Source: Squalus acanthias
Lineage: Eukaryota
NCBI GenBank assembly: GCA_030390025.1
Contig: CM059452.1
Span: 16,616,001-16,649,592, forward strand
DNA length: 33,592 nucleotides
Direction: 5' to 3'
Below the pieces are notes generated by a model, which saw only the letters and a list, made by a program, of their open reading frames with translations, searched no databases and was not told where the DNA came from. This document shows, one piece after another, positions 9,001 through 32,908 of this stretch. The position numbers and the translations under genes are program-made. The stretch's first letter is position 1; the number at the start of each line of letters is the position of its first letter.

Positions 9001-9050
9001 TAATTGCTATTCTCCTCTCGCTGGTGGGGGAGTTGGAGGTACAGCCGTTT
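1..9050. repeat. Higher-order direct duplication within the 52-bp array, period 4997-4998 bp
   Basis: The ORF track repeats with a constant offset (47/5044, 127/5124, 847/5844, 1679/6677, 2712/7709, 2849/7846) and near-identical translations. Sequence 1-~4200 matches ~4998-~9050 with scattered substitutions. Confidence 0.95.
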
Positions 9051-12000: not shown

Positions 12001-15000
12001 TGAACAATTGTCCTTTCCTCTCTCTCTGGTACGGCAGCGGGTACAATGGGTTAACAATTGCCCTTTCCCCTCTCTCTGGTGCGGGACTGGGGTACAGTGG
12101 GTTAACAATTGCCCTTTCCTCTCTCTAAGGTGGGGGAGTGGGGGTACACTAGGTGAACAATTGCCCCTCCCTCTCTCTCTGGTGTGGGAGTGGGATATAC
12201 AGCTGGTTAACAATTCCCCTTTCTCCTCTCTCTGTTGGGGTGGTGGGCTTTACAGTGGTTTAACAATTGCCCTTTCTCCTCTCTCTGCTGGGGTCTGGGG
12301 GTACATTCGGTTAACAGTTGCCCTTTTCCCTCTCTCTGGTGGAGGATTGGGGGGTACAGTGACTTAACAATGGCCCTTTTTCTCTCTCTGTTGGGGTGGT
12401 GGGTGGAACAGCTGGTTAACAATTGCCCTTTCCTGTCTCTGTGGTGGGGGTGTGGGGGTACAGTAGGTTAACAGTTGCCCTTTCCTCTCTCTCTGGTGGG
12501 GTGTGGGTGTACAGTGGTTTAACAATTGCCCTTCCCCCTCTCTCTTTTGGGGGAGTGGAGGTACACTGGTTTAACAGTTGCCCATTCCTCTCTCTCTGGT
12601 GGGGGAGTGGGGGTACAGTGGGTGAACAATTGTCCTAACCCCTATCTCTGGTGGGGGAGTAGCGGTGCATTGGGTTAACAATTGCCCTTCCCCCTCTCTC
12701 TGGTTGGGGAGTGGGGGTACAGTTGTTTAACAATTGCACTTTCCCCTCTCTCAGTTGGGGGATGGGCGTACAGTGAGTTAAAAATTGCCCTTCCCCTCTC
12801 TCTGGTGGTGTCGTGGGGGTACAATGTGTTAACAATTACCCTTCCCCCTCACGCTGGTGGGAGTCTGGGGGTACAGTGGTTTAACAGTCGCCCTTTCCCC
12901 TCTCTCTGGTGCGGGACTGGGGGTACACTGGGTTAACAATTGCCCTTTCCCCTCCCTCTGGGTGGGACTGGGGGTACAGTGGGTTAACAAATGCCCTTTC
13001 CGCTCTCTCTGTTGGGGGAGGGGGAGGTACAGTTGGTTAACAATTGCCCTTCCCCCTCTCTCTGTTGCGGAGCTGGGGGTACAGTGGGGTAACAATTGCC
13101 CTTTCCCCTCTCTCTGTCGGGGTGTGGGGGTACAGTGGGTTAACAATTGCCCTTCCCCCTCTCTCTTTTGGGGGAGTGGAGGTACAGTGGTTTAACAGTT
13201 GCCCATTCCTCACTCTCTAGTGGGGGAGTGGGGGTACAGTGGGTTAACATTAGTCCTTTCCCCTCTCTCTGGTGGGGGAGTGGGGGTACAGTTGTTTAAC
13301 AATTGCCCTTTCCCTGCTCTCTGGTTGGGGATTGGGGATACAGTGAGTTAAACATCGCCCTTCCCCTCTCTCTGGTGGTGTAATGGGGGTACAATGTGTT
13401 AACAATTACCCTTACCCCTCTCGCTGGTGGGGGACTGGGGGTACAGTGGTTTAACAGTCGCCCTTTCCCCTCTCTCTGGTGCAGGAGTTGTGATACAGTC
13501 GGTTAACAATTGCCCTTTCCTCTCTCTAAGGTGGGGGAGTGGGGGTACACTGGTTGAACAATTGTCCTTTCCTCTCTCTCTGGTACGGCAGCGGGTACAA
13601 TGGGTTAACAATTGCCCTTTCCCCTCTCTCTGGTGCGGGACTGGGGTACAGTGGGTTAACAATTGCCCTTTCTTCTCTCACTGGTGGGGTAGTGGCAGGT
13701 ACAGTGGGTTAACAATTGCCCTTTCCTCGCTCACTGGTGGGGTAGTGGGAGGTACAGTGGGTTAACAATTGCTCTTTCCCCGCTCACTGGTGGTGGAGTG
13801 CGGGTATAGTGGGTTAACAATTGCCCTTTCATCTCTCTCTCTTGGGGGAGTGGCTGTACAGTGAGTTAGCAATTCTCATTTTCCCTCTCTCTGGTGGGGG
13901 AATGGGGTACAGTTGGTTAGCAATTACCCTTCCTCCTCTCGCTGGTGGGGGACTGGGGGTACAGTGGTTTAACAATTGCCCTTTCCTCTCTCTAATGTGT
14001 GGGAGTGGGGGTACACTGGATGAACAATTGTCCTTTGCTCTCTCTCTGGTACGGCAGCGTGTACAATGGGTTAACAATTGCCCTTTCCTCTCTCTCTGGT
14101 GTGGGAGTGGGGTACAGTTGGTTAACAATTGCCGTTTCCTCTCTCTCTGGTGAGGGTGATTCGGTACCGTAGTTTAACAATTGGACTTTCCTCTCTCGCT
14201 GCTTGGGTAGCGGGTATTCAGTGGTTTAATAATTGCTCTTTCCCCTCTCTCTGGTGTGGGAGTTGGGGTACAGTGTGTTAACAATTGCCCTTTCCACTCT
14301 CTCTGATGTGGGAGTGGGGGGTACAGTGTGTTAACAATTGCCCTTTCCCCTCTCTCTGATGTGGGAGTGGGGGGTACAGTGTGTTAACAATTGCCCTTTC
14401 CCCTCTCTCTGGTGTGGGACTGGAGTACAGTGTGTTAACAATTGCCCTTCCCCCTCTCTCTGATGTGGGAGTGGGGTGTACAGTGTGTTAACAATTGCCC
14501 TTTCCCTTCTCTCTGGTGTGGTACTGGAGTACAGTGTGTTAACAGTTGCTCTTCCCCCTCTCTCTGTTGGTGGAGTGAGGGTACAGTTGTTAACAATTGT
14601 CCTTTCCTCTCTCTAAGGTGGGGGAGTGGGGGTACACTAGGTGAACAATTGCCCCTCCCTCTCTCTCTGGTGGGGGAGTGGGATATACAGCTGGTTAACA
14701 ATTCCCCTTTCTCCTCTCTCTGGTGGGGGAGTGTGGTTACAGTGTGTTTACAATTGCCCTTTCCTCTCTCTAAGGTGGGGGAGTGGGATATACAGCTGGT
14801 TAACAATTCCCCTTTCTCCTCTCTCTGTTGGGGTGGTGGGCTTTACAGCGGGTTAACAATTGCCCTTTCCCCTCTCTCTGCTGGGGGGCTGAGGGTACAT
14901 TGGGTTAACAGTTGCCCTTTTCCCTCTCTCTGGTGGAGGATTGGGGGGTACAGTGACTTAACAATGGCCCTTTCCCCTCTCTCTGTTTGGGTGGTGGGTG

Positions 15001-16913
15001 GAACAGTTGGTTAACAATTGCCCTTTCCTGTCTCTGTGGTGGGGGTGTGGGGGTACAGTAGGTTAACAGTTTCCCTTTCCTCTCTCTCTGTTGGGGTGTG
15101 GGGGTACAGTGGTTTAACAATTGCCCTTCCCCCTCTCTCTTTTGGGGGAGTGGATGTACAGTGGTTTAACAGTTGCCCATTCCTCTCTCTCTGATGGGGG
15201 AGTGGGGGTACAGTGGGTGAACAATTGTCCTAACCCCTATCTCTGGTGGGGGAGTAGCGGTGCATTGGGTTAACAATTACCCTTCCCCCTCTCTCTGGTG
15301 GGGGAGTGGGGGTACAGTTGTTTAACAATTGCCCTTTCCCCTCTCTCAGTTGGGGGATGGGGGTACAGTGAGTTAAAAATTGCCCTTCCCCTCTCTCTGG
15401 TAGTGTCGTGGGGGTACAATGTGTTAACAATTACCCTTCCCCCTCACGCTGGTGGGAGTCTGGGGGTACAGTGGTTTAACAGTCGCCCTTTCCCCTCTCT
15501 CTGGTGCGGGACTGGGGGTGCACTGGGTTAACAATTGCCCTTTCCCTCCCTCTGGTGCGGGACTGGGGGTACAGTGGGTTAACAAATGCCCTTTCCGCTC
15601 TCTCTGGTGGGGGAGTGGGAGGTACAGTTGGTTAACAATTGCCCTTCCCCCTCTCTCTGTTGCGGGACTGGGGGTACAGTGGGGTAACAATTCCCCTTTC
15701 TCCTCTCTTTGTTTGGGGAGTGGGAGGTACAGTAGGATTAACAAATGCCCTTTCTCCTCTCACTGTTGGAGGAGTGGGAGTTACAGTGGGTTATCAATTG
15801 CCCTTTCTCCTCTCACTGGTGGAGGAGTGGGAGTTACAGTGGGTTAACAATTGCCCTTTCCTCTCTCTCTATTGGTGGAGTTGGGGTACAGTGGATTAAC
15901 AATTGCCCTTTCCTCACTCTCTGGTAGGGGAGTGCGGGTATAGTGGGTTAACAATTGCCCTTTCATCTGTCTCTCTTGGGGGTGTGGGGGTACAGTGAGT
16001 TATCAATTCTCATTTTCCCTCTCTCTGGTGGGTGAATGGGGTACAGTTGGTTAGCAATTACCCTTCCCCCTCTCGCTGGTGGGGGACTGGGGGTACAGTG
16101 GTTTAACAATTGCCCTTTCCTCTCTCTAATGTGTGGGAGTGGGGGTACACTGGATGAACAATTGTCCTTTGCTCTCTCTCTGGTACGGCAGCGTGTACAA
16201 TGGGTTAACAATTGCCCTTTCCGCTCTCTCTGGTGGGGGCATTTCGGTACCGTAGGTTAACAATTGCACTTTCCTCTCTTGCTGCTTGTGGAGTGGGGAT
16301 TCAGTAGTTTAATAATTGCCCTTTCCCCTCTCTCTGGTGTGGGAGTGGTGTTACAGTGGGTTAACAATTGCCCTTCTCCCTCTCTCTGTTGGGGTAGTGG
16401 GGGTACAGTGGGTTAACAATTATGCTTTCCCCTCTCTCTGTTGGGGGAGTGCGGGTACAGTTGGTTAACAATTGCTCTTTCCCCTCTCTCTGCTGGGGGA
16501 GTGGGGGTACAGTGGGTTAACAATCGCACTTCCCCATGTCTATGCAGGGGGTGTAGGAGGTTCTGTTGCTTAACAATTGCCTTTTGCCCTCTCTCTGGTG
16601 GGGGATTGGGGGTACAGTTGGTTAACAACTGCCCTTTCCCCTCTCTCTGGTGGGGGAGTGGGGTACAGTGAGTTAATAATTGCCCTTCCCCCTCTCTCTG
16701 GTGGGGTGGTGGGTGGTACAGTGGTTTAACAATTGCCCTTTCCCCTCTCTCTGGTGGGGGAGTTGGGGTGCAGTGAGTTAACAGTTGCTCTTTCCTTCCT
16801 CTCTGGTGGGGGAGTGGGAGCTACAGTTGGTTAACAGTTGCTCTTTCCCCTCTCTCTGGTGGGGGAGTGGGGAGTACAGTGTGTTAACACTTGCCTTTCC
16901 CCTCTCTCTGGTG
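1..16913. repeat. 52-bp minisatellite array, >=16.9 kb (open at the window start)
   Basis: Uninterrupted tandem copies of consensus GGTGGGGGAGTGGGGGTACAGTGGGTTAACAATTGCCCTTTCCCCTCTCTCT (52 nt; monomers 50-53 nt). Length/52 gives about 325 monomers. It ends abruptly at ...ctctctctggtg|agataca (16913). Confidence 0.98.
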
Positions 16914-17145
16914 AGATACAGTTCATGGTCCTCTGTGGCCCGCATTTCAGCTGGTGCGATGCTGCAAATTATAACTGTCCCATATTCTGATGGGATGGAC
17001 AACATGAGAAACAGCGAGACCGAGATCTTAATGTGCAGCCTTGGTTTGTCGGTAATGTGAATATTAAGATTCCCCCAGCGGAAGGAAATTTGCTCAAGTT
17101 ACTTTGAGGAATCCTGTAGTGAGAGAGCTTCACTCTGTCTCTAAC

Positions 17146-19334
17146 AAAGCAAACTACGAAGATATGAGGGGCGAGTTAGCTAAGGTAGATTAGTAAACTA
17201 CATTATAAGGTATGACAGTGGACGTGCAATGGCTGGCATTTAAAGAATTAATAAATCATTTACAACAAATATACATTCCTTTCCGGCACAAAAACCCCAC
17301 AGGAAAACTGGTCCAACCGTGGCTAACAAGAGAAGTTAAAGATCGTATTAAATCAAACGAAGAGACTGATAACGCTGCCAAAAGATTAGTAAGCCAGGGG
17401 ATTGGGAGGAATTTAGAATTCTGCAAAAGAAGACGAAGAAATTGATAAAGAAATGGAAAATAGAATATGAGAGTATACTAGTGAGAGACATAAAAACAGA
17501 CTGTAAAAGCTGCTATAGGTATGTAAAAATGTAAAGATTAGCGAAAATAAATGTGGGTCCCTTCCAGGCTGAGACAGGAGCAATTATAATGGGGAATAAG
17601 GAAATGGCTGAGCAATTAAGGAAATACTTTGTGTCCGTCTTCACGGAAGAAGACGCAAAAAGCTTCCTGGAAATAGGGGACAACAAGGGTCTAGCGAGAA
17701 TGAGGAACTGAAAGATATTAGTGTTGGTAAAAAAAGTAGTACTGGAGAAATTAATGGGACTGAAAGCCGATAAATCCGCTGGATGTGATGGCCTACATGC
17801 AAGAGTTGAAGGAGTTGGCTATCGAGATAGTGGTTGTCATTTTCCAAAATTCCATAGATTCCAGAACTGTTCCCCTGGATTGGAAGGTGGAAAATGAAAC
17901 TCCACTATTTAAGAGAGGAGGGAGAGAGAAATCGGGGAACAACAGACCAGTTAGAATTACATCAGTAGTAGGAAAAATGCTAAATTATTAAGGACGTGGT
18001 AACAGGGGACTTAGAAAATAATAATAGGATTGGGCAGAGTCAACACGGATTTATGAAAGGAAAATCGTGTTTGACGATTCTGTTCGAGTTTTGAGTTTAT
18101 AACTATCAGAATAGATCATGGGGAACCAGTGGATGTGGTGTATTTGGATTTTCAGAAGGCATTCGATAAGGTGCCACACAAGAGGTTATTAAACAAAATT
18201 AGGGCTCATGAGATTGTGGGTAATAAACTAGCATGGATTGAGGATTGGTTAACGGACAGAAAACAGAGAGTAGGAATGAACGGGTCATTTGCGGATTAGC
18301 AGGCTGTAACTAGTGGGGTACCCAAGGATCAGTGCTTGGGCCTCAGCTATTCCCAATTTACATCAATGATTTGGATGAGGGGACCAAATGGAATATTTCC
18401 AATTTTGCTGATGAAACAAGGCTGAGTGGGAATGTAAGTTGTGAGGAGGATTCAAAGAGGCTTCAAGGGGATATAGACAGGCTAAGTGAGTGGGCAACAA
18501 CATGGCAAATGGAATATAAGGTGGAGAAATGTGAAGTTATGCACTTTGGGAGGAAAAACAGAAAAGCAGAGTATTTTTAAATGGTGAGAGACTGGGAGAT
18601 GTTGGTGTTTAGAGGAGCTTGGTGTCCTTGTACACGAATCACTGAAAGGTAACATGCAGGTACAGCAAGCAATTAGGAAAGCAAATGGTATGTTGACCTT
18701 TATTACAAGAGGATTTGAGTGTAAGAGTAAAGACGTCTTACTGCAATTATATAGGGCCCTGGTGAGACCACACCTGGGTATTGTGTACAGCTCTGTTCTC
18801 CTTACCTAAGGAAGGGTATACTTGCCATAGAGGGAGTGCAACGAAAGTTCACCAGACTGATTCCTGGGATGGGGGGATTGTCCTATGAGGACAAATTGAG
18901 TAGACTAGGCCTATATTCTCTAGAGTTTTGAAGAATGAGAGGTGATCTCATTGAAACATACAAAATTTTACAGGGCTTGACAGTGTGGATGCAAGGAAGT
19001 TATTTCCCCTGGCTGAGGAGTCTAAAACCAGGGAGATCACAATCTCAGAATAAGGGGTCGGCCATTTAGGTCTGAGATGAGGAGCAATTTCTACACTCAG
19101 AGGATGGTGAATCTTTGGAATTCTCTACCCCAGAGGGCTGTGGAGGCTCAGTCGTTGAGTATATTCAAGACAGAGATCGATAGATTTTTGAGTATTAAGG
19201 GGGTCAAGGGATATGGGGATAGTTCAGGAAAGTGGAGATGAGGTAGAAGATCAGCCATGAACTTATTTAATGGCGGAGCGGGTTCGAAGCGCCAAATGGC
19301 CGACTCCTGCTCCTATTTCTTAAGTTGTTTATGT
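17146..19334 (+). mobile_element. 5'-truncated, decayed CR1-clade LINE (ORF2 linker plus RT domain plus 3' UTR)
   Basis: Broken ORF2 segments: QPWLTREVK, IFQNSIDSRTVPLDWKVENETPLFKRGGREKSGNNRPVRITSVVGKML, YLDFQKAFDKVPHKRL, LGPQLFPIYINDLDEG..FADETRL, WQMEYKVEKCEVMHFG. CR1-type 3' end ...gactcctgctcctatttcttaagttgtttatgt. Flanked by TCTAAC at 17140-17145 and 19335-19340. Confidence 0.95.
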
Positions 19335-19496
19335 TCTAACCCGTGATGTAATCTGAGCTGGGAGCGCTGGCGTTACAAGCCTTGTGCCCGAGAACCGCAA
19401 ACACCCTACTTCAGATAAACAGCTCCCCCTTGGCAAAAATGGGAAAACAATTAATTCAGCGGCTGTGTGTTTAACTCACGATCGGAAGAAAAGGCC

Positions 19497-19533: not shown

Positions 19534-19922
19534 TCATTGATAAGAATTGACAGTGTCCATCAGTACAAGGGAAATGTTCACAAGCATTGTTTACCGCTGG
19601 ATTTATTGATCGTTCTGGTGATGATCTTCAAGGGGAGCGCTTCATGTCCCACCACACAGGAGTAAGAAGCGCCGCTGGCCCACTCCTCCGCTGCAATGGA
19701 TAACAGGCTGTAAATGAAGAAGGAACTGCTGCCGTTCTCCGCCATCACCTCGGTGTTCTTGTAGTTGCTGGAATTCACCGGCTTGTCATTGACGATCATC
19801 TTGACGAAGATCTCTCGGGGGGAGAAACCTCTCCCTAAGCAGGTGAGGTGACGAACCTCTGAGCGGAGATTTCTTCTGCCGAGGGCAGGAGGACAGACAC
19901 GGACGTTTCCGCGTATCTTTAG
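19534..19922 (-). pseudogene. IGHM: IgM heavy chain CH4 exon plus secretory tailpiece, frameshifted
   Basis: Acceptor ...gtcctgcag|CT at 19922. Repaired translation: [126 protein letters not shown], closely matching recalled shark Cmu4 plus tail. It has three 1-nt deletions, the conserved Trp is replaced by Met, and the penultimate Cys is Tyr. The internal G|GTAAA donor used for TM splicing is retained (GT at 19593-19594). Confidence 0.95.
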
Positions 19923-20111
19923 CTGCAGGACAATTACAATAAAAAGGACAATAAACTGGAGAATTCCAGAGACAATGAAGCGGTGGTTAGATGTGACAGA
20001 AATGTGCTTTCCGCTGAATTTTAAAGGATTTATATTTCCCATCTGGGCCCTGTCCCATTTCCAGCCCGGAGCTGAGGGCTATTCCATCCTTGTCTCTGAG
20101 AGCTTGAAGAG

Positions 20112-20272
20112 TTGAATTTACAGCACAGAAACAGGCCATTCTGCCCAACAGATCTGTGCTGGTGTTTATGCTCCACAGGAGACTCCAACCACCTTAATTC
20201 ATCTAAACCCAATAACATATCCTTCTATTCCTTTTTCTCTCATGGACTTATCTAGTTTCCCATTAAGTGCAG
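20112..20272 (-). mobile_element. Short 3'-end fragment of a CR1-like LINE in the CH3-CH4 intron
   Basis: acagcacagaaacaggccattctgcccaac...gtttatgctccac...catatccttctattcc...ttatctagtttccc is the reverse complement of a CR1-type 3' terminus (compare gggccgaatggccgctttctgtgctgtaa at 28173-28201). Confidence 0.75.
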
Positions 20273-20417
20273 ATTATCGGGTGCCAGAGTGTTTAGTTAG
20301 TGGAATTACCAATCTGAATTATCAGAGTAGTCCATTGAAGCTCTTAATAGAACGAATTGGCACAAGGACAGCAAATAGTCACAATGTCTCACTTATTGCT
20401 ACAATTTCACCGCTCAC

Positions 20418-20726
20418 CTTTTTCCTTGTGGATGGAATTCCTTATAGGAGTCGGCATATCCTGATGGTTCACCACGCAGGTGAACTCATCCCCACTCAGC
20501 CAGGCTTGTGTCGAGATGTTGAAGTTGCTGATCACGCTGTTGGGATCCTCTCCGGTTTGAACGGCAATCTGTGATTTCAAAATATTCTTTCCTCTGGTCC
20601 AGGTCACGTTGACTCCATAAGGAGCATTAGACACGAAGCAGTTTAAGGTCATCGTGGCCTCCAGTAAGACCTGTTCTAGTGACGGTTACCGAAGAATAAT
20701 CACTGGACCGTTGCATGAGGAAGGAT
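20418..20726 (-). pseudogene. IGHM: IgM heavy chain CH3-type exon with an in-frame stop
   Basis: 309-nt phase-1 exon, tttctgtttcacag|AT...AAAG|gtgagc. Translation [102 protein letters not shown]. The C1-set Cys/Trp/Cys are intact, and the EQVLLEAT and CVVNHQ..PTP.R.SIHKE motifs are typical of shark Cmu3. TAA at 20686-20688. Confidence 0.93.
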
Positions 20727-21419
20727 CTGTGAAACAGAAATGAAAGTCAAGCAAGGCTTCATCTTCACAATCAGGATACCAGTGTTCAGCCATTACTGTC
20801 TCAAGGAGAATAAATCACCTTTGAGATATCACCCTCTCGCTGTTGCTTAAACACCATCATTAATGGAATGACAAGGAATTGGCAACGATTCCGGGAGACT
20901 CTTTAACATTTCCAGTGTATTTGCTCCCAGAGCCTCCTGTAATGGGCTGTGAGCAAATACGCGGCGTAACAAAATGAATAAATTCGGGTGCAATTGTTTT
21001 ACGCACTGAATAACGCTCTTCCCGAAATCCCTTGCTCCTTTATGCCAGTCTATAGACCCTTGAGCTCGATCACATCTCCGCTCATTATAATGGCGCCGCC
21101 CCCAGGGTCACGAGCTCGACACGAAAATTACACTCGTTCAAAACGTCTGTCAAACAAAATCCAGGATTTTAGGTGCAAAAAAGTTAATTTTCTGGTGACT
21201 TGTTGTAATTTTTGTCGCGATGAAAATTTGCAGGAACCAGTTGCAGCTCCCGTCAGAGAAAAAGTGAAAGGTCGAGAGAATGGAGTTCCAAGGGGTCTTT
21301 TGTGTTGGGGAAAAATGTGTAATGCCGGTGTGAGGTAGTTTGTTCATTTCTGTCATTAGTGAACGTTTATCGTGTCTGGTGAGAGAGTCTGAATGGAATA
21401 TGACCGCAGGGCATTAATA

Positions 21420-21955
21420 CCAACACAGGGACAGGAGGAGGTCATTCAGCGCCTCCAGCCTGTTCCGACATTTAATTACATCATGACTGATCTGCACCTC
21501 AACACCATCTACCCGCCTTGTTTCTGTAACCCTTGATACCCTTGTCGAACAAAAATCCAGCAAACTCAGTTTTGAAATTTTTAATTGACCCCCAGCCTCA
21601 ACAGCTTTTTGGGGGAGAGCAGTCCAGATTTCCACTACCCTTTGTGTGAAGGAATCCTTCCTGACATCACCGCTGCGGCCTAGCTCTAATTTTAAGGTTA
21701 TGCTCCTTGATCTGGACTCCCCCACCTATATCAACCCAATCAATTCCATTTATCAACTTAAACACCTCAATTAGATCACCTCTTAATCTTCTATACTCAA
21801 AGGAATACAAGCCTATTCTGTGCAACCTGTCCTCATTATTTTACACTTTTATCCGCGGTATCATTCTGGTAAATCTGCACTGTAGCCCCTCCAAGGCCAG
21901 TATATCCTGCCTGATGTGTGGTGCCCAGAATTGAACGCAGTTCTCTAAATAGGGT
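21420..21955 (-). mobile_element. 5'-truncated CR1 LINE 3' fragment
   Basis: The minus strand reads PYLENCVQFWAPHIRQDILALEGLQCRFTRMIPRIK...GESRSRSITLKL...VRKDSFTQRVVEIWTALPQKAVEAG, the CR1 ORF2 C-terminus, followed by a CR1-type 3' UTR. Confidence 0.9.
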
Positions 21956-22145
21956 AGATGCCCTTTCTAGCAGTCGGTTCCTGGACAGTTACCAGTAAAG
22001 GGTTCCAGACACCCACTGCCGCTCCGAATATGATCAGCCAACTCAGGAAAAACCTGCGACCAAGGACACCTCACTAACTGTCTGACACCAGAGCAGAGAG
22101 AAACATTCTTTGCCGAGATTAGTGAATCCTGAACCGTGAGGAATC

Positions 22146-22424
22146 CTGATTCAGAAGATCGTGGGTTCAAGTCCCACTCCAGAGACTTGAACACGAAATG
22201 TAAATCGACACTCCCAGTTCAGTACTGAGGGGGGCGCTGCACTGTCGGAGTTGCTGTCTTTCACATCAGATGTTAAACCGAGGATCCGCCTGCTCACGCA
22301 GGTGTGCGTAATAGATCCCATGGCACTATTTCGAGGAAGAGCAGGGGAGTTCTCCCGGTGTCCTGGCCAATATTTATCCCGAAACAAACATCACTAAACC
22401 AAAAGGTTATCTGGTCATTATCAC
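22146..22424 (+). mobile_element. tRNA-derived Deu-domain SINE (SacSINE1/AmnSINE1-like), truncated at both ends
   Basis: Pol III B box GGTTCAAGTCC at 22164-22174, then gctgcactgtcggag..gtctttc..gttaaaccgagg..agatcccatggcactatttcg..agagcaggggagttctcccggtgtcctggccaa, matching the recalled Deu-domain consensus. The A box is absent, and the element stops at ggtcattatcac where the 38-bp array starts. Confidence 0.85.
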
Positions 22425-25400
22425 CAGAACTGCGCACAGTATTCTAAGAGCGATATGGACAGCGTAACTCTACACAGTAATCTAAGTGTGATATGGAGAC
22501 CAGGACTGTGCAGAGTATTCAAAGTGTGATATGGAGACAGAACTGTGTACAGTATTCTAATTTTGATAAGTAGATCAGAACCGTGCATGATACTCTAAGT
22601 GTGAAATGGAGAACAGAACTGTCCACAGTATTCTGAGTGTGATAGGGAGATCAGAACTGTGCCGATAACACTAAATGTAATATGGAGATCAGAACTGTGA
22701 ACAGTATTCTAAGTGTGATATGGAAACCAGAACTCTATACAGTATTCTAAGTTTGATATGACACCAGAACTGTGCATATACCTCCAAGTGTGATACGGAG
22801 ACCAGAACTCTACACAGTATTCTAAATGTGATAGGAGAACAGACCTGTGCACAGAACTCTAAATGTGATATGAGACCAGAACTGTGTACAGCATTTCTAA
22901 GTGTGATATGGAGACCAGAACTGTGCACAGTTTTCTAAGTGTGATATGAGACCAGAACTCTACACAGATTTCTAAGTTTGATATGAGATCAGAACTGTGC
23001 ACAGAACTCTAAATGTGATATGAGACCAGAACTTTACACAGTATTCTAAGTGTGATATGGAGAACAGAACTCTGCACAGTATCCTAAATGTGATAGGAGA
23101 ACAACCTGTGCACAGAACTCTAAATGTGATATGAGACCAGAACTGTGTACAGCATTCTAAGTGTGATATGGAGACCAGAACTGTGCACAGTTTTCTAAGT
23201 GTGATATGAGACCAGAACTCTACACAGATTTCTAAGTGTGATATGAGACCAGAACTGTGCACAGAACTCTAAATGTGATATGAGACCAGAACTTTGCACA
23301 GTATTCTAAGTGTGATATGGAGATCAGAACTCTGCACAGTCTTCTAAGTATGATATGGAGATCAGAATTGTGCACAGTACTCTAAGTGTAATATGGAGAC
23401 GAGAACTCTACACAGTATTCTAAGTGCGTTATGGAGACCAGAACTCTGCACAATATTGTAAGTGATATATGGAGACCGGAACTCTTCACAGTACTCAAAA
23501 TGTGATATGGAGACCAGAGCTGTGCACAGTATTTTAAATGTGATATTGGGACCAGGACTGTGCAGAGTATTCAAAGTGTGATATGGAGACCAGAACTGTG
23601 CACAGTATTCTAAGTGTGATATGGAGACCAGAACTGTGCACAGTACTCTAAGTGTGATATGGAGACCAGAACTGTGCACAGTATTCTAAGTGTGATATGG
23701 AGACCAGAACTCTGCACAGTATTCTAAGTGTGATATGGAGACCAGAACTCTGCACAGGATTCTAAGTGTGATATAAGACCAGAACTGTGCACAGAACTCT
23801 AAATGTGATACGAGACCAGGACTGTGCACAGTATTCTAAGTGTGATATGGATACCTGAACTCTGCACTGTACAGTAAGTGTGCTATGGAGACCAGAATTG
23901 TGCACAATACTTTAAGTATGATATGGAAAACAGAACTGTGCAGAGTGTACTAAATGTGACATGGAGACCAGAATTCTGCACAGTACAGTAAGTGTGATAT
24001 GGAGAGCGGAACTATACACAATATTCTAAGTGTGATATGAGACCAGAATGTGCAAATAACTCTAAATATGACATGAGAACAGAACTGTGCTACAGTACAG
24101 TAAGTGTGATATGGTGACCAGAACTGTGCATATTATTCTAAGTGTGATATGAGACCAGAACTGTGCACAGAACACTAAATATGATTTGAGACTACAACTT
24201 TGCACAGTATTCTAAGTGTGATATGGAGACCAGAATTGTGCACAATACTTTAAGTATGATGTGGAGACCAGAACTCTGCACAGTACAGTAAGTGTGATAT
24301 GGAGACATGAACTGTGGACATTACTTTAAGTATGATGTGGAGACAAGAACTGTGCACAGTATTCTAAGTGTGATATGGAGACCAGAACTGTGCACAGTAT
24401 TCTAAGTATGATATGGAGACCAGAACTGTGCACAGTATTCTAAGTGTGATATGGAGACCAGAACTGTGCACAGTATTCTAAGTGTGATATGGAGACCAGA
24501 ACTGTGCACAGTATTCTAAGTGTGATATGGAGACCAGACTGTGCACAGTATTCTAAGTGTGATATGGAGACCAGAACTGTGCACAGTATTCTATTTGTGA
24601 TATGGAGACCAGAACTGTGCACAGTATTCTAAGTGTGATATGGAGACCAGTACAGTGCACAGTATTCTAAGTGTGATATGGAGACCACAACTGTGCACAG
24701 TATTCTAAGTGTGATATGGAGACCAGAACTGTGCACAGTATTCTAAGTGTGATATGGAGACCAGAACTGTGCACAGTATTCTAAGTGTGATATGGAGACC
24801 AGAACTGTGCACAGTATTCTAAGTGTGACATGGAGACCAGAACTCTGCACAGTATTCTAAGTGTGATATGAGACCAGAACTGTGCACAGAACTCTAAATG
24901 TGATATGAGACCAGAACTGTGCACAGTATTCTAAGTGTGATATGGAGACCAGAACACTGCACAGTATTCTAAGTGTGATATGGATACCTGAACTCTGCAC
25001 TGTACAGTAAGTGTGATATGAGACCAGAATTGTGCACAGTATTCTAATGTGATATAGAGACCTGAACTCTGCTCATTACAGTAAGTGTGCTATGGAGACC
25101 AGAATTGTGCACAATACTTTAAGTATGATATGGATACCAGAACTGTGCAGAGTGTACTAAATGTGACATGGAGACCAGAATTCTGCACAGTACAGTAAAT
25201 GTGATATGGAGAGCGGAACTATACACAATATTCTAAGTGTGATATGAGACCAGAACTGTGCACTTAACTCTAAATATGACATGAGAACAGAACTGTGCAC
25301 AGTCCAGTAAGTGTGATATGGTGAGCAGAACTGTGCATATTATTCTAAGTTTGATATGAGACCAGAACTGTGCACAGAACACTAAATATGATATGAGACT

Positions 25401-25917
25401 ACAACTGTGCACAGTATTCTAAGTGTGATATGGAGGCCAGAATTATGCACAATACTTTAAGTATGATATGGATACCAGAACTGTGCAGAGTGTACTAAAT
25501 GTGACATGGAGACCAGAATTCTGCACAGTACAGTAAGTGTGATATGGAGAGCGGAACTATACACAATATTCTAAGTGTGATATGAGACCAGAACTGTGCA
25601 CATAACTCTAAATATGACATGAGAACAGAACTGTGCACAGTACAGTAAGTGTGATATGGTGACCAGAACTGTGCATATTATTCTAAGTGTGATATGAGAC
25701 CAGAACTGTGCACAGAACACTAAATATGATGTGAGACTACAACTGTGCACAGTATTCTAAGTGTGATATGGAGACCAGAACTCTGCACAGTACAACAAGT
25801 GTGATATGGAGACCAGAACTGTGCACAGTATTCTAAGTGTGATATGGAGACCAGAACTATGCACAGTATTCTAAATGTGATATGGTGACCAGAACTGTTC
25901 ACAATACTCTAAGTGTG
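22424..25917. repeat. 38-bp minisatellite array derived from CR1 ORF2
   Basis: About 92 tandem copies (length/38) of CCAGAACTGTGCACAGTATTCTAAGTGTGATATGGAGA, with 36-nt variants. The near-perfect core lies at about 24350-24850. The minus strand translates as HLEYCAQFWSPY. Confidence 0.97.
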
Positions 25918-25965
25918 GACTAACCAAATTACTATAAAAGTTGAACATATCTCCTTACCTTATGA
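25880..25965 (-). mobile_element. CR1 ORF2 remnant running directly into the 38-bp array
   Basis: Minus strand from ATG at 25946-25948: MFNFYSNLVSPHLEYCEQFWSPY, collinear with the CR1 copies in this window (EVMLNLYKSRVRPQLKYCLQFW at ~27692; LYRALVRPHLEYCVQF at ~31469). Confidence 0.85.
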
Positions 25966-25996
25966 CAGTTTTAGCCCTGTATCCCACAACACTAAC

Positions 25997-26296
25997 TTGC
26001 CATTGTGATGTTCCAGATCGACTCACTTCGTCGACCCACGCAGTAGATTGTGCTGCTCCCCACCTCTGACTCGGTGAGGGTTAACTGGCTGCTCAGGGTT
26101 TAGGTTCCCCTCTTGTTGAGCACTGACAAGTAAATCTTCTATCCAGTGGTGAGCGGCTCTTTACCTTTCTTCCAGGAAAGGCTGGTGATTTCGGGGGAGT
26201 AGTCCATCGCCAAATAGCCGAAGGTGACGGAGCCGTCGGTGTTGGGTTGTTGACAGGAGGAGAGCAGGGTGAAGAGGGTGGGAGGAGACTGTGTCG
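25997..26296 (-). pseudogene. IGHM: IgM heavy chain CH1 exon with two in-frame stops
   Basis: 300-nt phase-1 exon, cattctttcccag|CG...GCAA|gttagt. Translation (A)[97 protein letters not shown], matching recalled shark Cmu1. TAG at 26139-26141, TAA at 26100-26102, and the first intradomain Cys codon is TAT (26214-26216). Confidence 0.95.
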
Positions 26297-26569
26297 CTGG
26301 GAAAGAATGGCCAATTGAACAAGTTAGAATCTGTAATCCGTGCTCATCAAACAACCAAACAACTCGAAATTTGACTCCGGGATAATCTCATTCCATCTTT
26401 TTTCCGCACAAAGACTACATCTTCATTTGAGCTTCTGTCAGTTCCATCATTGGCACCTGTAGAACCCCTGGTCAGGAACACACCTCTCTGTCCCCGAGCC
26501 CTAACACATTACAGAAATAAGAACCTTTGCTCCTCACCTCAATAAACTATCTTTTATTGGATCATAGAA

Positions 26570-26730
26570 TAGAAGAGCAGTCTCGTTTCCCTGCTATATC
26601 GGCCAGCATTTATTTCTCAATCCACGACACTTTCATTCATTCATTTCATTGCAGTTTTTGGAAATTTGCTCTGTGCCAATTTGCTGCTCCGTTTCCTTAC
26701 AAAACAACAGTGATTATACTTCAACAGTAA
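26570..26730 (+). mobile_element. Degenerate 3' half of a second Deu-type SINE
   Basis: agaagagcag...ggccagcatttatttctcaa parallels 22337-22385, then cattgcagtttttggaaatttgctctgtgccaatttgctgctccgtttccttacaaaacaacagtgattatacttcaa resembles the recalled SINE tail. Confidence 0.65.
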
Positions 26731-27212
26731 CAGCGTAATCCGTGCTTATAAAATTAGCTATAACTCCTCAAACCTTGACTAACATAGAACTGAACAGGGA
26801 ACTTATCCATGGCCTAGTTTCTAAGATTCAAGCTGCAGATGAATCGGGATTGATTCGAACATATCTCTTTCCTTCTCAGTATTTGAGGAAGAGTGATGTA
26901 TTTCAACGCATTGTGATTTGTGCTCTGTCCCATTCTATTGAATGGATGTCTCCTGAGTTTCCTCATCCCTCCCGCTAAATTAATAATCCGAATTAAATAC
27001 GATTCCCAAGCCCGGTCAATTGGAAGTGTCTCTTTAAATGGCCAATTTCATTTACCAAAGTACCTTCCGCCTCCCACCAGTGAGAAGAGGCGCTGCTTTT
27101 TGTGTCCTAACAGGAACCACTTGTTGCTGTTTGTACCGAGCATAGTCTAAACATCGGGGCAGGTTTCTTCTCTAAATATCTAATATTGGCAATCCTTAGA
27201 CATTACAAATCT

Positions 27213-28217
27213 ATAGGAGGCAGAGAATAGTGGTGAGCGGATGTTTTACAAACTGTAGAAAATGATGCAGTGGGGTCTCCCATGGATCGGTATGAGGACT
27301 ATTGTTGTTCTTGTTATATAAAAATTACCTGGTCTTGGGTATAGGGAGTACAATTTCGAAGTTTGCAGATGATACAAAACTTGGCAAAGATGCAAATAGT
27401 GAGCAGGATAGTAGCAGACTTCAGGAGGACATAAACATACTGGGAAAATGGACAGACACATGGCAGGTGCAATTTAATGCAGACAAGTGTGAAGCGATGC
27501 ACTTTGGGAGGAACAACATGGAGAGGCAGCATAATCTGAATGGTGCTATTTTGAGGGGATGTAAGAACAGAGAGACCTGGATTTGCATATTTACAAATCG
27601 TTGAGGATGGCAGTGCAAGTTGATAAAGCTGTTATGAAAGCGTATGAGATACTTGGCTTTGTAAATGGGGGCACTGCATATAAAAAACAATGAAGTTATG
27701 CTAAACCTTTACAAATCACGGGTTAGGCCTCAGCTGAAGTATTGTTTACAATTCTGGCACCACAATTTAGGAAGAAGGACTCGGCCTTGGAGAGGGTATC
27801 GAGGAGGTTTACCAGGATGATACCAGGGATGAGAGACTTCAGTTATGTGGAGAGATTGGAGAAGCTGGGATATTCTCCTTAGAGCTGAGGTTAAGTGGAG
27901 ACCTATTAGAAGTGTTCAAAGCTATGGGAGGTTTTGATAGAACAAATAGACAGAAACTCTTTCCTCTGGCAAGTCGGTCACAGATTTAAAATAATTGGCA
28001 AAGATCTAGAGGGGAAATTGGGGTAATTTTTTCACACAGAGAGTTGCTAATTTCTGAATGCACCAGGCAGCTGGACATGTAATTGAAGAGGACTCATTTG
28101 CAGCGTTACGAGGAAAAAGCTGGGGTGTTGGGTGAAATTGGACAGCTCTTTCAGAGGCGGCACAGGCAAGACGGGCCGAATGGCCGCTTTCTGTGCTGTA
28201 ATTTGCTCTGATTCTAC
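27213..28217 (+). mobile_element. 5'-truncated CR1 LINE of a different subfamily
   Basis: ORF 27302-27604 contains TISKFADDTKLG...RLQEDINILGKWTDTWQVQFNADKCEAMHFGRNN (RT C-terminal motifs). The downstream ORF2 tail is frameshifted. 3' end gggccgaatggccgctttctgtgctgtaatttgctctgattcta. Confidence 0.92.
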
Positions 28218-28939
28218 ATGAGTCAGCGGAAATAGTTCTTCCCGATTTAATGGAAGTAAGCGCTTCATATTCTGAACACTTTCTATCAGATTTATTTTAT
28301 TGTTTGTTATAATGAAAGAGAATTTTTAAAATAAAGGGATCTGAGCAATCTGACGCAAATGAGTGAATCGGTTACTGTTGTAAAGTCTTAAAGCTCATTA
28401 TGAATGACGGCTCATTGCAGGCTGACTGTCAATCTTTAAATGTTTCACAGAAGTGCAGCTCAGTGACTGTCTGCCTTGTGTTGTGACCCAGTCCAATAAC
28501 TGCAATTCGGCCGAATTTGTCCCTTTTCAAAAGAAAATTGAACAAAAATAATGGTTTCATACTTAAATTCCCATGATGGTAATTTGGAGTGGGGGAATCA
28601 ACATTCTCCATTTAAATTGTCAAAATAACTTCCAGCCTCTCGTCAGATCAGAACAGGCGCTGCTTTCTGGAGCGTTACAGACACTTCCTGAAACTGTTTG
28701 TTCTGAAAGTGAGCTCAGGATCAGGCCTATCTCATTCAATAATTATCTGATACTCAAAATGTGTCAACAGTAACAATTCATTCAAATTTGGGCATTTTTT
28801 TCAGAAAGAACGTTAACGTCAATTAAGGTGCGTTGTGTCATTGGGGCAATAGAACGATTTATGTTTATATGTCTGGCTCAAGCACCCGCTCCTTAGTAGT
28901 TAGATGCCGATTAAGATTCCTTCAATACTGTTGGAAAAA

Positions 28940-29325
28940 ATACTCTCATGTCAGATAGAGTACAGATACAATAGAGTAAATCTCGCTCTACACTGGCCTG
29001 TCACGCGCTGTAAGGTTAGGTATAGCAAAGGTTGAATTCACCTAAAACACCCTACTGCACTGCCCTGTCAGACACTCGTTTCAAATATAGCAAGGTTTAG
29101 GTTCCGAGTAAAGCTCCCTTTACACTTTCCCTTCAAACACTCCCAGGGCAGATACAGCACGGGTTAGATACAGAGTAAAGCTCCGTCGACACTGTCCCAT
29201 CAAACACTCCCAGGGCAGGTACAGCACGGGTTAGATACAGAGTAAAGCTCCCTCTACACTGTCCCATCAAACACTCCCTGGGCAGGTACAGCATGGGTTA
29301 GAAACTGATTAAAGCTCTATCTGCA
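28940..29325. repeat. 67-bp tandem repeat, about 5-6 copies with degenerate edges
   Basis: Unit ACAGCACGGGTTAGATACAGAGTAAAGCTCCCTCTACACTGTCCCATCAAACACTCCCAGGGCAGGT; acagcac recurs at 29154 and 29221 (period 67). I recall it as a common dispersed repeat in shark DNA. Confidence 0.9.
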
Positions 29326-31148
29326 GTCTCCCTGCAGTGTCTCTGAACTGCTCCTTCTGAATGTCACAAACTCATTTACTGATCTCATTTCCGAGGCGCC
29401 TCCTCAACCTTAAAGTTAACCGTTCAAGTTTCTCACAGATAAAAGTTTCTTAAATAACTGAGTCAGATTACACTCCCTGAAATAGAGGAGAACGAAACAG
29501 GTTTACAACCAGTCAGGAGGACTCCTGATTCTCACACTGTGTGCAGGCGCACGGAAACAGACACATACGGTGCAACAATGGTGCTCCCGGCAGATAGATC
29601 TGTTCAATCTGTCAATTTCAATCAAGCTGTTTGATTTCTAATTTTATTCTTGTCAGTTTCCGACCACCTCAAATCTGCATGTTCTTTAAAATAAATCTGG
29701 TATTAATGTGAAAATCGCTTCAACATCCAACAATTTATCCCTCTCTGTCGACAATCTTGCAAACCGTGTAAGATTTAATTTCCCTCAAGGCAAGTATCTC
29801 GAAATAATTCACATTCCAGGATAATTTGCTGCCCGTAACACGGGACTCAGCGGCGGAGTAAGAATTTAACAAACCAGGAGACAGTTACATTGAAAACCGA
29901 TTACCCACTGATGTGCTATAATTATATAATTAAATAAAACCTATAAAATCATCGAGGGAAATCATGAAGTTAATTCATTAAAATCTGCGGCGACACCTTA
30001 TCGAGCCGAGCACAGCTGATAGAGAAATGTATTGTATCCTAAATTCATTTCCGATTTCACTAAACATTCTCTGCATTCCTTGAGATTTTGCAGTAACTGT
30101 AATCCTGACCAATATACAACGCAATTGTGAGAGTTCATTTTCGTTTAATGAATTAGCACTGATGTTATGTTCTAAGTTAATCTTCATGTTAACTGATTTT
30201 ACGCTGTATCATTGAAAATATTCTGTGAGCCTACCGGCCCTTCCTCCTCATAACCACCCGCACCTGGAACTGGTGTAATTAAATTAATCTGCTTGAATTT
30301 CAGTGTGTTATTTGTCATCTCCAGCCTTATTAATAACATTAATTCACAGTAATTTCAAACCTGTTTGTGACAGATAACTTGTGATATATTAGGGTTTTAA
30401 TTAAATTATCATGACAATTAATCAATATTAAATTATTAAGCATCATATTAATACATATATACATTCAGACAATATATTACTTTTACTTAAATCGAATCAC
30501 ATTTGAATAATTTAAAATGATCACGAACGTCTAATACTGTCCAGTTCTCTACCTACACCTTTTTAAACTCTGCATGTTTCAGATCTCTATGATATAACAT
30601 AAACTCCGTCTATTCTCAGCGTGAAGTTCACATTATGGGTTTAGGAGTGGATTGTTTTAAATAGTTCAATGTCCGGGCGGGGTCACATCTTACTAACTAC
30701 CGACGGGCTGTAACACCGCCTGTTTACTAAAGCTGGACTCTCGAGTTTAAATATTCTCCTCAATCGTAACCATAAAAAATATGTTTATTAATTACAAACC
30801 ACCCGGGCAGTTTGCAGTCAGTAACAGAGCCTGCGCTATTTAATAACACAGACTATCTTTTATATTTTACTCCTGTAATTCACAGAATGCCCGTAAATTC
30901 ATTATTAAATATAGTCTGCTATTGATTGAAAATAAGATCCAGTGTAAAACTGGACGAGAACAATTCTTTCAGACAATCTGCGGCACTGAACCTTAATGAG
31001 AAAATGGAGGAGAGACATTGTTCATCAAATTAATATTAATAAGAATGAAACATAACTCTCAGATATAATCTGTCCTTTGTCTATCGTTCTATCCCGTAAA
31101 GAGCAGAGCTATGGGAGACAGGATGTCGTTTTATATTGAAAATAATAT

Positions 31149-32047
31149 GAATGTAAGTTGTGAGGAGGATGCAAGAAGGCTTCAAGAGGATATAGACAGG
31201 CTAAGTGAGTGGGCAAGAACATGGAAATGGAATATAATGTAGAGGAATGTGAAGTTATCCACTTTGGTAGGAAAAATAGTAAAGCAGAGTATTTTTTAAA
31301 TGGTGAGAGATTTTGGGAAATGTTGGTGTTCAGAGGGACCTGGTTGTCCTTGTACACGAATCACTGAAAGTTAACATGCAGGTACAGCAAGTAGTTAGGA
31401 AAGCAAATGGTATGTTGAACTTTATTCCAAGAGGATTTGAGTATAAGAGTAAAGACGGCTACTGTAATTATATAGGGCCCTGGTGAGACCACACCTAGAG
31501 TATTGTGTACAGTTTTACCTAAGCAAGGATATTCTTGCCATAGACGGAGTGCAACGAAGGTTTACCAGTGTGATTGCTGGGATGGGGGGATTGTCCTGTG
31601 AGGAGAGATTTGCAGACTTGGCCTATTTTCTCTAGAGTTTAGATGAATGAGAGGTGATCTCATTAAAACATACAAAATTCTTACAGAGATTGACAGGGTA
31701 GATGTAGGGAGGATGTTTCCCCTGGCTGGGGAGTCTAGAACCAGGGGTCACAGTCTCAGAATAAGGAGTCGGCCATTTAGGACTGAGATGAGGAGAAATG
31801 TCATCACTTAGAGGGTGATGAATCTTTGGAATTCCCTTCCCGAGAGGGTTGTAGAGGCTCAGTCGTTGAGTATATTCAAGACAGAGATCGATAGATTTTT
31901 GGATATTAGGGCAATCATGGGATATGGGTATAGGGCAGGAAAGTGGAGATGAGGTAGAAGATTAGCCATGATCTTATTGAAAGGCGGAGCAGCTCGAGGG
32001 GCCAACTGGCCTAATCCTGCTCCTAATTATTACGTTATTATGTGCTT
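31149..32047 (+). mobile_element. 5'-truncated CR1 LINE, same subfamily as 17146-19334
   Basis: Aligns by eye, almost ungapped, with 18430-19334 (gaatgtaagttgtgaggaggat...gagtatattcaagacagagatcgatagatttttg...cctgctccta). Confidence 0.95.
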
Positions 32048-32861
32048 AATACATGCTTTATCTCCCGCTGAAACCGATTACAAACTGGACATTTCTCTAC
32101 CCATTGGTAGCCGGGCTATGAGAGGGTTGTTCTGGAATCCAAATCAGCACAAATTTAACTGCGCAGTGCGCGGCTGCTAATCAGTAATAAGGGAGCCTTT
32201 GCTTTAAATCAGGCGCAGAACTCTGTGAGAATATTCAAGTAAGTGCAGCGGGTTCAAGGCAATTCCACCTCTGTTTTATTTACTTTGTGATTCCCACTCA
32301 TCTCATTACAGTGTGGGTATGGGGTTATTAAAATCTCTCTCCAGCACTTCATGCAGTGCTGAATAAACGGAATGAATTATCTAGAATTATCTTTATTTGA
32401 CAATAATTAAATTAAATGGCGCGTTGATCAATGTATTATTTCTGATCCTATTTTATAATATTGTGATCATAGAATTTACCGAAAATCATGCTTTAGAAGT
32501 TATGCCATGTGAAATGATTCTTACTTGTGTAAGAGCTACAGAATAATGTAATGTTGAAATAGTTAAAACCCCTCTTGCTCCCATTCATATTCACACTAAT
32601 CTACCGCACACAGTATTTGGCAGCAATCCAGCCAACTGCTGTTAGCGAGGCTCGAACGCCCAGTGTCATTTACAGGAAGCATCTGGGGTTTCAGTACAGT
32701 AAATCAAATATCTGTTTCCTCACTACTGACCGCTTGGCTGAAACCAACTTCAAACCCATTATATTGTCAATGAGGTCATGATGTGGAGATGCCGGCGTTG
32801 GACTGGGGTGGACAAAAATGAGAAGTCGCACAACACCAGGTTATAGTCCAACAGATTTATT

Positions 32862-32908
32862 TAATTTTACAAGCTTTCGGAGCTATCGCTCCTTCGTCAG
32901 GTAAGTTA
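32862..32908 (-). ncRNA. Second, identical hammerhead motif in the inverted arm
   Basis: Exact reverse complement of 33342-33388. Confidence 0.8.

Follow-up and report, generated by a model that had tools for sequence, protein, structure and literature searches.

Exons of the locus and their lesions

The window, that is the whole stretch of 33,592 nucleotides of Squalus acanthias contig CM059452.1 analysed here, contains a minus-strand locus with three Cmu exons (CH1, CH3 and CH4) followed by a secretory tail, in the order found in IgM (Table 1). Exon identity was established from trees and tblastn comparisons that included named shark IgM proteins; in the latter, horn shark P0002 is 70.5% identical to the locus in CH1, 74.0% in CH3 and, over the longer CH4 piece, 84.5% in CH4. 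The initial annotation had described three Cmu exons with intact phase-1 splice sites and without CH2, and tblastn and exon reading confirm the exon set and its place. The splice sites are also as described, with AG acceptors and GT donors present throughout the CH exons, all in phase 1, although position -1 of the CH1 donor is changed (G>A); the exons themselves are not intact.

Table 1. Features of the locus, numbered from the first letter of the window
Feature	Position	Strand	Basis
52-bp minisatellite in CH4-TM intron, 326.9 copies	4..16913		repeat search
CR1-like insertion, some 200 bp downstream of the tail	17146..19335		cluster alignment
Secretory tailpiece, frameshifted	19534..19594	-	exon reading
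Cmu4 (CH4) pseudo-exon	19595..19922	-	tblastn, exon reading
Cmu3 (CH3) pseudo-exon	20418..20726	-	tblastn, exon reading
Retained 3' part of CH2-CH3 intron	20727..22424	-	co-linear with CH2-bearing clusters, 79-90%
CR1-like piece in CH2-CH3 intron remnant	~21422-21950		label from earlier reading
SINE-like piece in CH2-CH3 intron remnant	~22146-22424		label from earlier reading
CH2-deletion junction, array's last unit joined to intron-2 DNA	22424..22425	-	cluster alignment, contigs
38-bp minisatellite, 92.8 copies	22423..25917		repeat search
Cmu1 (CH1) pseudo-exon	25997..26296	-	tblastn, exon reading
Retained 3' part of J-CH1 intron	26297..31151	-	co-linear with other IgM clusters
CR1-like piece at V-D-J deletion site	31152..32047		alignment with other clusters

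CH1 contains two stops, TAG at codon 53 (26141-26139) and TAA at codon 66 (26102-26100), and its first cysteine is replaced (Cys28>Tyr, 26216-26214). CH3 has a TAA at codon 14 (20688-20686), and CH4 has lost one nucleotide near 19910 and another near 19848, its conserved tryptophan being changed as well (Trp43>Met, near 19797). With a further 1-nt deletion that shifts the frame of the secretory tail (near 19589), the locus totals three stops and three 1-nt deletions, and an open frame with a secretory tail is absent. Beyond the window, a TM1 exon matching shark IgM lies at about G000:C29:16596510-16596642, where the acceptor has been lost by a change of AG to AA. The locus is a dead IgM heavy-chain gene from which no antibody chain is predicted; with these exon lesions, splicing CH1 to CH3 would yield no protein.

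An ORF-like stretch at 16778-17098 was considered as an Ig or TM exon and rejected, having no Ig or TM match and aligning with intron DNA of intact clusters. Contigs of four presumed-RNA runs from one study were aligned to the CH3-CH4 stretch only; the letters of the contigs listed are mostly those of other clusters, and one contig of 83 nt from X7 has a single difference from the window.

Copies of the locus and loss of V-D-J

Among the 53 clusters of this genome with a CH3 match, 49 have a CH2 upstream of it, and the remaining four are the window and its paralogs. The comparison with paralogous clusters proposed in the initial annotation shows three paralogs with the same CH2-less junction. 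The copies are 98% alike; the CH3 TAA and the CH4 Trp>Met change are present in all four, and the CH1 TAG and Cys>Tyr change in all three that retain CH1, this exon having been lost in copy C29:18.07M. Other exon sets have also been lost in the same genome, with CH1-CH3 missing from three other clusters; the C3:208.43M cluster consists of CH1-CH2 only, and CH1 was not found in the C1978 cluster as retrieved.

Upstream of the four copies, over 37.3, 17.8, 28 and 23.9 kb respectively, no V, D or J was detected at E<=1e-3. The question of a joined versus a split V-D-J upstream of the window is therefore answered by neither being present in 37.3 kb, the region having been deleted. This deletion runs from the promoter through leader, V, D, D and J into the first part of the J-C intron, about 4.5 kb by comparison with C449:340k and about 7.9 kb by comparison with C3:208.22M, and one CR1-like piece now separates upstream-of-V DNA from J-C intron DNA. 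Both the upstream-of-V flank and the J-C intron DNA that remain are co-linear with intact clusters, showing descent from a V-D-D-J-C cluster.

Contig C130 carries four clusters with duplicated CH3-CH4, and in a presumed-RNA contig CH4 is spliced to the second CH3. Duplication and splice together suggest a six-domain IgM, which is probably transcribed. Such a six-domain IgM would matter more than the locus described here, since in reviews the number of constant domains of shark IgM is four, with IgM1gj having three (PMC5192425, PMC4279169). The window was also considered as a collapsed recombinant of the a and b halves of the C130 duplication, and rejected since 84 diagnostic sites give no clean switch point.

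The CH2 deletion and the 38-bp array

A degenerate CH2 between CH1 and CH3 had been named beforehand as a test, and no trace of one is found in 20727-25996. Three CH2 proteins give no match at E<=1 in the interval, and five CH2 exon DNAs reach at best 22 bits (E 0.69), whereas in the control the CH2 exons of the other four clusters score 356-393 bits on a CH2-bearing intron. Relative to C449:340k about 0.9 kb is missing at the break (22425/22424), and relative to C3:208.22M 1.66 kb. Both ends of the deletion are purely intronic and leave the phase-1 sites in place, unique intron DNA has been removed from both sides of CH2, and microhomology at the junction amounts to only about 2 nt. The junction is identical in all four copies, and contigs from three of the four DNA runs compared (three studies) span it with no difference. 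Apart from the two repeat-like pieces listed in Table 1, the CH2-CH3 intron remnant is unique DNA; contig depth is very high over 21425-21949 and 22100-22399, which fits interspersed repeats. Run X8, labelled as another organism, also matches the junction exactly; its DNA may come from a different species or from the host within a mixed sample, and it was left out of dating.

The 38-bp array is found in intron 1 of all five CH2-bearing clusters aligned and so is an ancestral element of the CH1-CH2 intron; it has expanded here, where it has 92.8 copies, against 14.9 and 29.9 in the two CH2-bearing clusters measured. Since it coexists with CH2 in other clusters, the array did not replace CH2. 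The link between minisatellite and CH2 loss proposed in the initial annotation accordingly survives in part: the break does lie in the array's last unit, but the array neither took the place of CH2 nor came with its loss.

Two readings of the junction turn on this array. That a mis-assembled array hides CH2, a possible refutation named in advance, could be entertained for an interval holding a 3.5-kb tandem repeat; it is, however, ruled out for practical purposes by the independent contigs that cross the junction without mismatch, and the window has no N, the same junction recurs in copies differing by about 2%, and the break removed unique intron DNA from both sides of CH2. A reading that concerns the mechanism only, and that we hold to be possible but rather unlikely, is that the minisatellite caused the deletion through fragility or slippage at its end. 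The left break within the last unit, the greater length of the array here, and a second deletion, in copy C29:18.07M, that also ends within the array (window-equivalent 22557) speak for it. Against this, the CH2-bearing clusters with the array retain CH2, the CH1-CH3 deletion of three other clusters begins outside the array, two breaks are too few for enrichment, and the right break has no array-like sequence, so that unequal crossing-over between repeats is not the explanation.

Descent, order of events and known systems

The four copies form a group of their own (100/100) in the CH1+CH3+CH4 tree and fall within a 99/97 clade with CH2-bearing clusters of C3, C988 and C130. Two derived marks are common to the locus and CH2-bearing clusters. 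The 1-nt deletion in the tail is found in those on C130 (first CH4), C988 and C3, and C826 has an orphan CH4 that carries it too. The CR1 insertion 3' of the tail, judged by its alignment a shared derived mark, has the same insertion point in C988:517k and C3:208.22M and is absent from C130 and intact clusters. All four CH2-bearing clusters of the C988/C3 group have a germline-joined VDJ, an IgM1gj-like configuration. C3:208.22M has no stop codon in common with the four copies, and the gene may thus still have been alive at their split. Exon trees may be blurred by homogenisation within the genome.

Ig constant exons all join one another in the same phase, so that any intronic deletion stays in frame. 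We consider it highly probable that the locus is a dead IgM gene that lost CH2 and V-D-J in separate deletions and was copied into four pseudogenes, independently of IgM1gj and with decay likely preceding the loss of CH2. The two deletion junctions, the lesions of each exon, the presence of these in the other copies and the position of all four inside a group of CH2-bearing clusters of this genome are observed directly. The order of events that we infer begins with the tail frameshift, followed by the CR1 insertion behind CH4 in a CH2-bearing ancestor. On one branch, and in any order, the CH2 and V-D-J deletions, the CH1 and CH3 stops, Cys28>Tyr and Trp43>Met would then have arisen; copying, likely by segmental duplication, would have given the four pseudogenes, which acquired private lesions, including the loss of CH1 in one. 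A conventional end-joining event that linked the array's last unit to the SINE-like piece, with about 2 nt of microhomology, would account for the CH2 deletion itself. The independent genomic loss of CH2 offered as one option by the initial annotation is thereby upheld, by one shared junction and by the nesting among CH2-bearing clusters.

The other option, that the locus is by descent a dead orthologue of nurse shark IgM1gj, with a single ancient loss of CH2, is rejected and we regard it as exceedingly improbable. The two have the same domain set, CH1-CH3-CH4 (P0017; PMC5192425), and with an IgM1gj CH1-CH3 query the window CH3 reaches the joint top score of the genome (129.2 bits); dozens of ordinary clusters, however, lie within 3 bits of it, and the window CH1 is among the worst (92.3 versus up to 118.5 bits). 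The AU test on CH1+CH3+CH4 rejects grouping with IgM1gj (p 2.2e-8, log-likelihood 64.19 lower), and the locus groups with ordinary IgM, an outcome named in the initial annotation as refuting IgM1gj orthology. None of the per-domain trees suggested there unites the locus with nurse shark IgM1gj, the CH4 of which groups with nurse and bamboo shark IgM. Identity in CH1, CH3 and CH4 is 50.0, 57.0 and 74.8% to IgM1gj, as against 83.5, 78.4 and 84.0% to the CH2-bearing C3:208.22M, with which the intron DNA of the locus is 88-90% identical; on either side of the break, intron sequence matches that of this genome's CH2-bearing clusters at 79-90% identity. IgM1gj, moreover, retains its tail and cysteine, whereas in the lineage of the locus the tail appears to have gone first and CH2 later; upstream V, D and J segments are also missing. 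Elsewhere in the genome, no candidate IgM1gj orthologue stood out among the 90 of 1464 and the 150 of 553 candidates that were scored; the best CH1 and CH3 identities to IgM1gj among those scored were 52-60%, all in clusters already tabulated. Divergent Ig matches near the window were also considered as IgM1gj and set aside, being from their translations what we take to be IgNAR-type genes. A further reading, which we think improbable, keeps the independent loss and supposes that the CH2-less gene once functioned: a joined-VDJ cluster lost CH2 in frame, made a tail-less three-domain chain resembling IgM1gj by convergence, and was killed later. It gains from the germline-joined VDJ of the nearest CH2-bearing kin, from the intronic ends of the deletion with their phase-1 sites and from the absence of a stop common to the sister cluster. 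On the stem there is also a nominal excess of replacements, 28 non-synonymous against 2 synonymous (pN/pS 4.26, Fisher p 0.027), in a weak test in which a purifying phase is not visible; codons with outgroup disagreement were left out, which biases the count against synonymous sites, and controls gave 1.01-1.14 (1.14 for the intact cluster) with low power. The equal phases, however, make an in-frame result expected of any such deletion, the stem changes include two stops as well as replacement of one core Cys and one core Trp, and the members of the tail-frameshift group with a single CH3-CH4 that were read each have stops, frameshifts or a lost donor. It would be just as improbable, in its fullest form, that a second shark lineage independently evolved the IgM1gj design from a germline-joined IgM cluster by shedding the tail and then CH2, had for a time a monomeric, IgG-like three-domain antibody, and then saw it die and be copied four times.

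As a dead pseudogene without V, the locus is of little importance in itself; it does show that one intronic deletion can give a clean in-frame loss of CH2, a plausible model for the origin of IgM1gj, and that IgM1gj orthology should not be assigned on the CH1-CH3-CH4 layout alone. Had the CH2-less form once worked, sharks would have arrived at an IgG-like antibody a second time, and under the convergent reading, if true, pre-joined IgM would have lost CH2 repeatedly in these animals.

Nurse shark IgM1gj (P0017, named as such in NCBI nr) has Cmu1-Cmu3-Cmu4 without Cmu2 and derives from an IgM mini-cluster (PMC5192425, PMC4279169). Its VDJ is joined in the germline, its secretory tail is intact, and the antibody is expressed, in neonates and the epigonal organ. 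The locus resembles it in lacking Cmu2 and having three constant domains, and differs in that V-D-J is gone, all three exons carry stops or frameshifts, the tail is frameshifted and orthology is absent. The elasmobranch antigen receptor complex (AgRC) links IgM, IgW, IgNAR and TCR genes, and its main text mentions neither IgM1gj nor pseudogenes (Flajnik et al. 2025, PMC12227049). The contig of the locus is comparable: IgM clusters are numerous on it, and IgNAR-type genes lie at distances of about 70 kb and 1 Mb from the locus. With conventional elasmobranch IgM mini-clusters (V-D-D-J-Cmu1-4-TM) the locus shares exons, order, phases, introns and both minisatellites, and it departs from them in its deleted CH2 and V-D-J and in its four segmental copies. 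Three IgM pseudogenes are mentioned for nurse shark (PMC5192425). With ordered Cmu exons, tail, TM1 and inactivating lesions, the locus belongs among the pseudogenes of IgM mini-clusters.

Constant exons, CH2 and the deletion junction

The window, which spans 16616001-16649592 of contig C29 in a 3.71 Gb genome, carries a real IgM locus without CH2. As the initial annotation had proposed, three constant exons (CH1, CH3 and CH4) are found, with splice acceptors and donors in place and in phase 1, and horn shark IgM is the closest named protein, which makes the host a shark. Protein searches of the CH1-CH3 interval with three CH2 queries gave no match at E<=1, not even a degenerate one, and five CH2 exons compared as DNA with positions 20727-25996 reached at most 22 bits; as positive control, non-self exons scored 356-393 bits when compared with a control intron.

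Features of the window (window positions)
Feature	Position	Strand	Location	Evidence or remark
CH1	26296-25997	minus		six-frame translation and tblastn with named shark IgM domains
CH3	20726-20418	minus		six-frame translation and tblastn with named shark IgM domains
CH4	19922-19595, tail to 19534	minus		six-frame translation and tblastn with named shark IgM domains
38-bp array	22423-25917		CH1-CH3 interval	
52-bp minisatellite	4-16913		CH4-TM intron	greatly expanded

In co-linear alignment, the window tracks five CH2-bearing clusters of the same genome through CH1 into the 38-bp array, so the array belonged ancestrally to intron 1 (two CH2-bearing clusters have 14.9 and 29.9 copies of it). With C988:419k (contig and position of the cluster, as below), alignment resumes in the CH2-CH3 intron at 22154, and with the other four at 22424. 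At base level, the terminal array unit of C449:340k matches the last unit of the window, which abuts intron-2 DNA directly with an overlap of about 2 nt; measured against C449:340k the window lacks about 896 bp there, and against C3:208.22M it lacks 1656 bp. The proposed tie between CH2 loss and the minisatellite thus holds in part: the break falls in the last array unit, but the array itself was already present in intron 1.

The junction is identical in three paralogous copies on C29 (17.03M, 18.07M and 18.20M, sharing 98.0-98.1% identity with the window across 3.09 kb) and, among the contigs listed, is spanned by contigs from DNA sequencing runs X1, X3 and X8 (at least three of four DNA runs, from three studies, one run possibly being the assembly source), these contigs extending at least 31 letters to either side of it with zero differences. 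Such agreement between copies and contigs excludes a mis-assembled array hiding CH2.

Inactivation and surroundings of the window gene

The window gene is dead. Lesions were read by projecting the four copies (the window and its three paralogs) on an intact cluster: CH1 has a TAG at codon 53 and Cys28 replaced by Tyr in each of the three copies still possessing this exon, the 18.07M copy having lost it; CH3 has a TAA at codon 14 and CH4 has Trp43 replaced by Met in all four; a CH4 frameshift is found in three of the four, and one extra stop and one extra frameshift are private to the window. The secretory tail is frameshifted, and the transmembrane exon TM1, its acceptor AG changed to AA, lies about 39 kb downstream of CH4, versus 4-5 kb in intact clusters. 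The V-D-J region is gone: neither the joined VDJ nor the split V-D-D-J that was to be sought beyond 33592 is there, as the 37.3 kb upstream of CH1 contain no V, D or J match at E<=1e-3, and the upstream DNA of the other three copies yielded none at this threshold either. Positions 32775-32048 match a flank lying some 1.1 kb before V in intact clusters, and a single CR1-like piece separates this flank from the J-C intron match, which runs from 31151 onward.

Repeated ORFs reveal an internal repeat, about 5 kb long, in the 52-bp minisatellite. A 654-bp insertion at 32779-33433 has a duplication of about 17 bp resembling that of a target site, and the three paralogs lack the insertion here. IgNAR-type genes at C29:16.71-16.73M, 17.12M and 17.70M adjoin CH2-less pseudogenes, the 16.72M copy having a frameshifted constant exon and a weak V match; the like spacing (about 390 kb) of the pairs 16.64M/16.72M and 17.03M/17.12M suggests a shared segmental duplication.

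Exon losses and duplications among IgM clusters

A genome search for CH3, in which the best 150 of 330 candidates were scored, gave at least 101 matches; with 43 rows at <=36% identity dropped, two half-hits merged and the four second CH3 copies of contig C130 counted with their cluster, at least 53 IgM clusters with CH3 remained. The CH2 search (best 150 of 665 candidates scored) gave at least 66 matches, 52 of them IgM CH2 rows at 50 places and 14 dropped, again as lower bounds. At least 49 of these 53 clusters have a CH2 no more than 15 kb upstream of their CH3, and comparison with paralogous clusters, as the initial annotation had advised, leaves the window and its three copies as those of the 53 without it.

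Elsewhere, other exons have been lost. Three C29 clusters (near 7.916M, 8.060M and 9.052M) have one deletion of about 5.6 kb in common, which removes CH1-CH3, so that J remains together with the J-C intron, CH4 and its tail; the recombination signal of the one J read is lost, and two of the three have a TCR-like V and recombination signals upstream. No CH1 was seen in the one cluster examined of three on C1978, and at C3:208.43M CH1-CH2 alone were seen.

Four C130 clusters (near 146-163k, 272-290k, 538-555k and 696-711k) have a tandem CH3-CH4 duplication, in the order CH1-CH2-CH3a-CH4a-CH3b-CH4b. V to J spans about 1.3 kb in the two whose upstream DNA was examined, with a split V-D-D-J read in one; the CH1, CH3 and CH4 frames are open in three clusters, the fourth having a CH3b frameshift, and the CH4a tails are dead (frameshifted) and the CH4b tails intact. 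A 130-nt contig from run X9, a run guessed to be RNA, links a CH4 end to a CH3 start in frame; the two letters between its aligned parts fit CH4a exons only, among 32 CH4 exons compared, and its 16 differences from the window CH3 are those of three CH3b exons and one ordinary cluster. Further joints in presumed-RNA contigs fit CH3a-CH4a and CH3b-CH4b. Expression of a six-domain IgM from C130 is likely, as a lead and not as proof, because the CH4a-CH3b splice is read from one contig with 29 letters on its short side.

Relation to nurse shark IgM1gj

PMC5192425 and PMC4279169 describe IgM1gj as a neonatal, germline-joined nurse shark IgM without Cmu2, and descent from such a gene, or else an independent genomic loss of CH2, had been proposed for the window. 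We computed a CH1+CH3+CH4 tree (23 rows, 314 columns, LG+G4, elephant shark as outgroup) that took in four intact clusters only and left out the C130 b copies and clusters without two domains. The four copies form a clade (100/100), sister to the CH2-bearing C3:208.22M (89/86), and both nest with C988 and C130 in a 99/97 clade, outside which IgM1gj falls. A dead IgM1gj orthologue would accord with the window CH3 tying for the best score, among candidates scored, with the IgM1gj query, and the long branch of IgM1gj and the concerted evolution visible in CH4 count against a tree-based separation; however, a tree constrained to unite IgM1gj and the four copies is worse by 64.19 log-likelihood units (AU p 2.2e-8), and the single-domain trees, with weaker support, likewise never join them. 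Two non-coding marks settle the nesting without reliance on the exon tree: a tail deletion common to the window, C130a, C988, C3 and C826, and a CR1-like insertion, located 200 bp past the tail and common to the window, C988:517k and C3:208.22M. Because the C130, C988 and C3 clusters retain CH2, CH2 was lost after both events, in the lineage of the window. Orthology with IgM1gj is rejected by the constraint test and this nesting, and independent loss is supported by the nesting and the shared junction.

It is highly improbable that the CH2-less gene was once functional and convergent on IgM1gj. Germline-joined VDJ is found in all four CH2-bearing kin on C3 and C988, each damaged, so the ancestor of the four copies may have been joined too, and zero stops are common to the four copies and their sister cluster. 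Against this, the changes on the stem leading to those copies include two stops and the loss of a core Cys and a core Trp, which makes decay the simpler reading. The 28 replacement and 2 silent changes there (pN/pS 4.26, Fisher p 0.027) show no purifying phase, but this count is biased against silent sites and an intact-cluster control gave 1.14.

The joined-VDJ pseudogenes with CH2 (three C988 clusters and C3:208.22M) belong to two different V families and carry the same tail frameshift as the window. On C29 near 7.53M, 7.55M, 7.62M, 7.66M, 8.65M and 10.25M, V matches to the IgM1gj query extend to J-level residues and are probably further germline-joined V regions.

In the literature reached, with subscription journals thinly covered, we found no report of a CH2-less IgM pseudogene family, fragments of which table S1 of PMC12227049 may hold, nor of a six-domain shark IgM. 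PMC12227049 describes IgM, IgW, IgNAR and TCR genes as linked. Typical shark IgM has four constant domains, according to PMC5192425 and PMC4279169; the window gene belongs to a family of IgM pseudogenes that has undergone several deletions and lost CH2 independently, and its meaning is ordinary.
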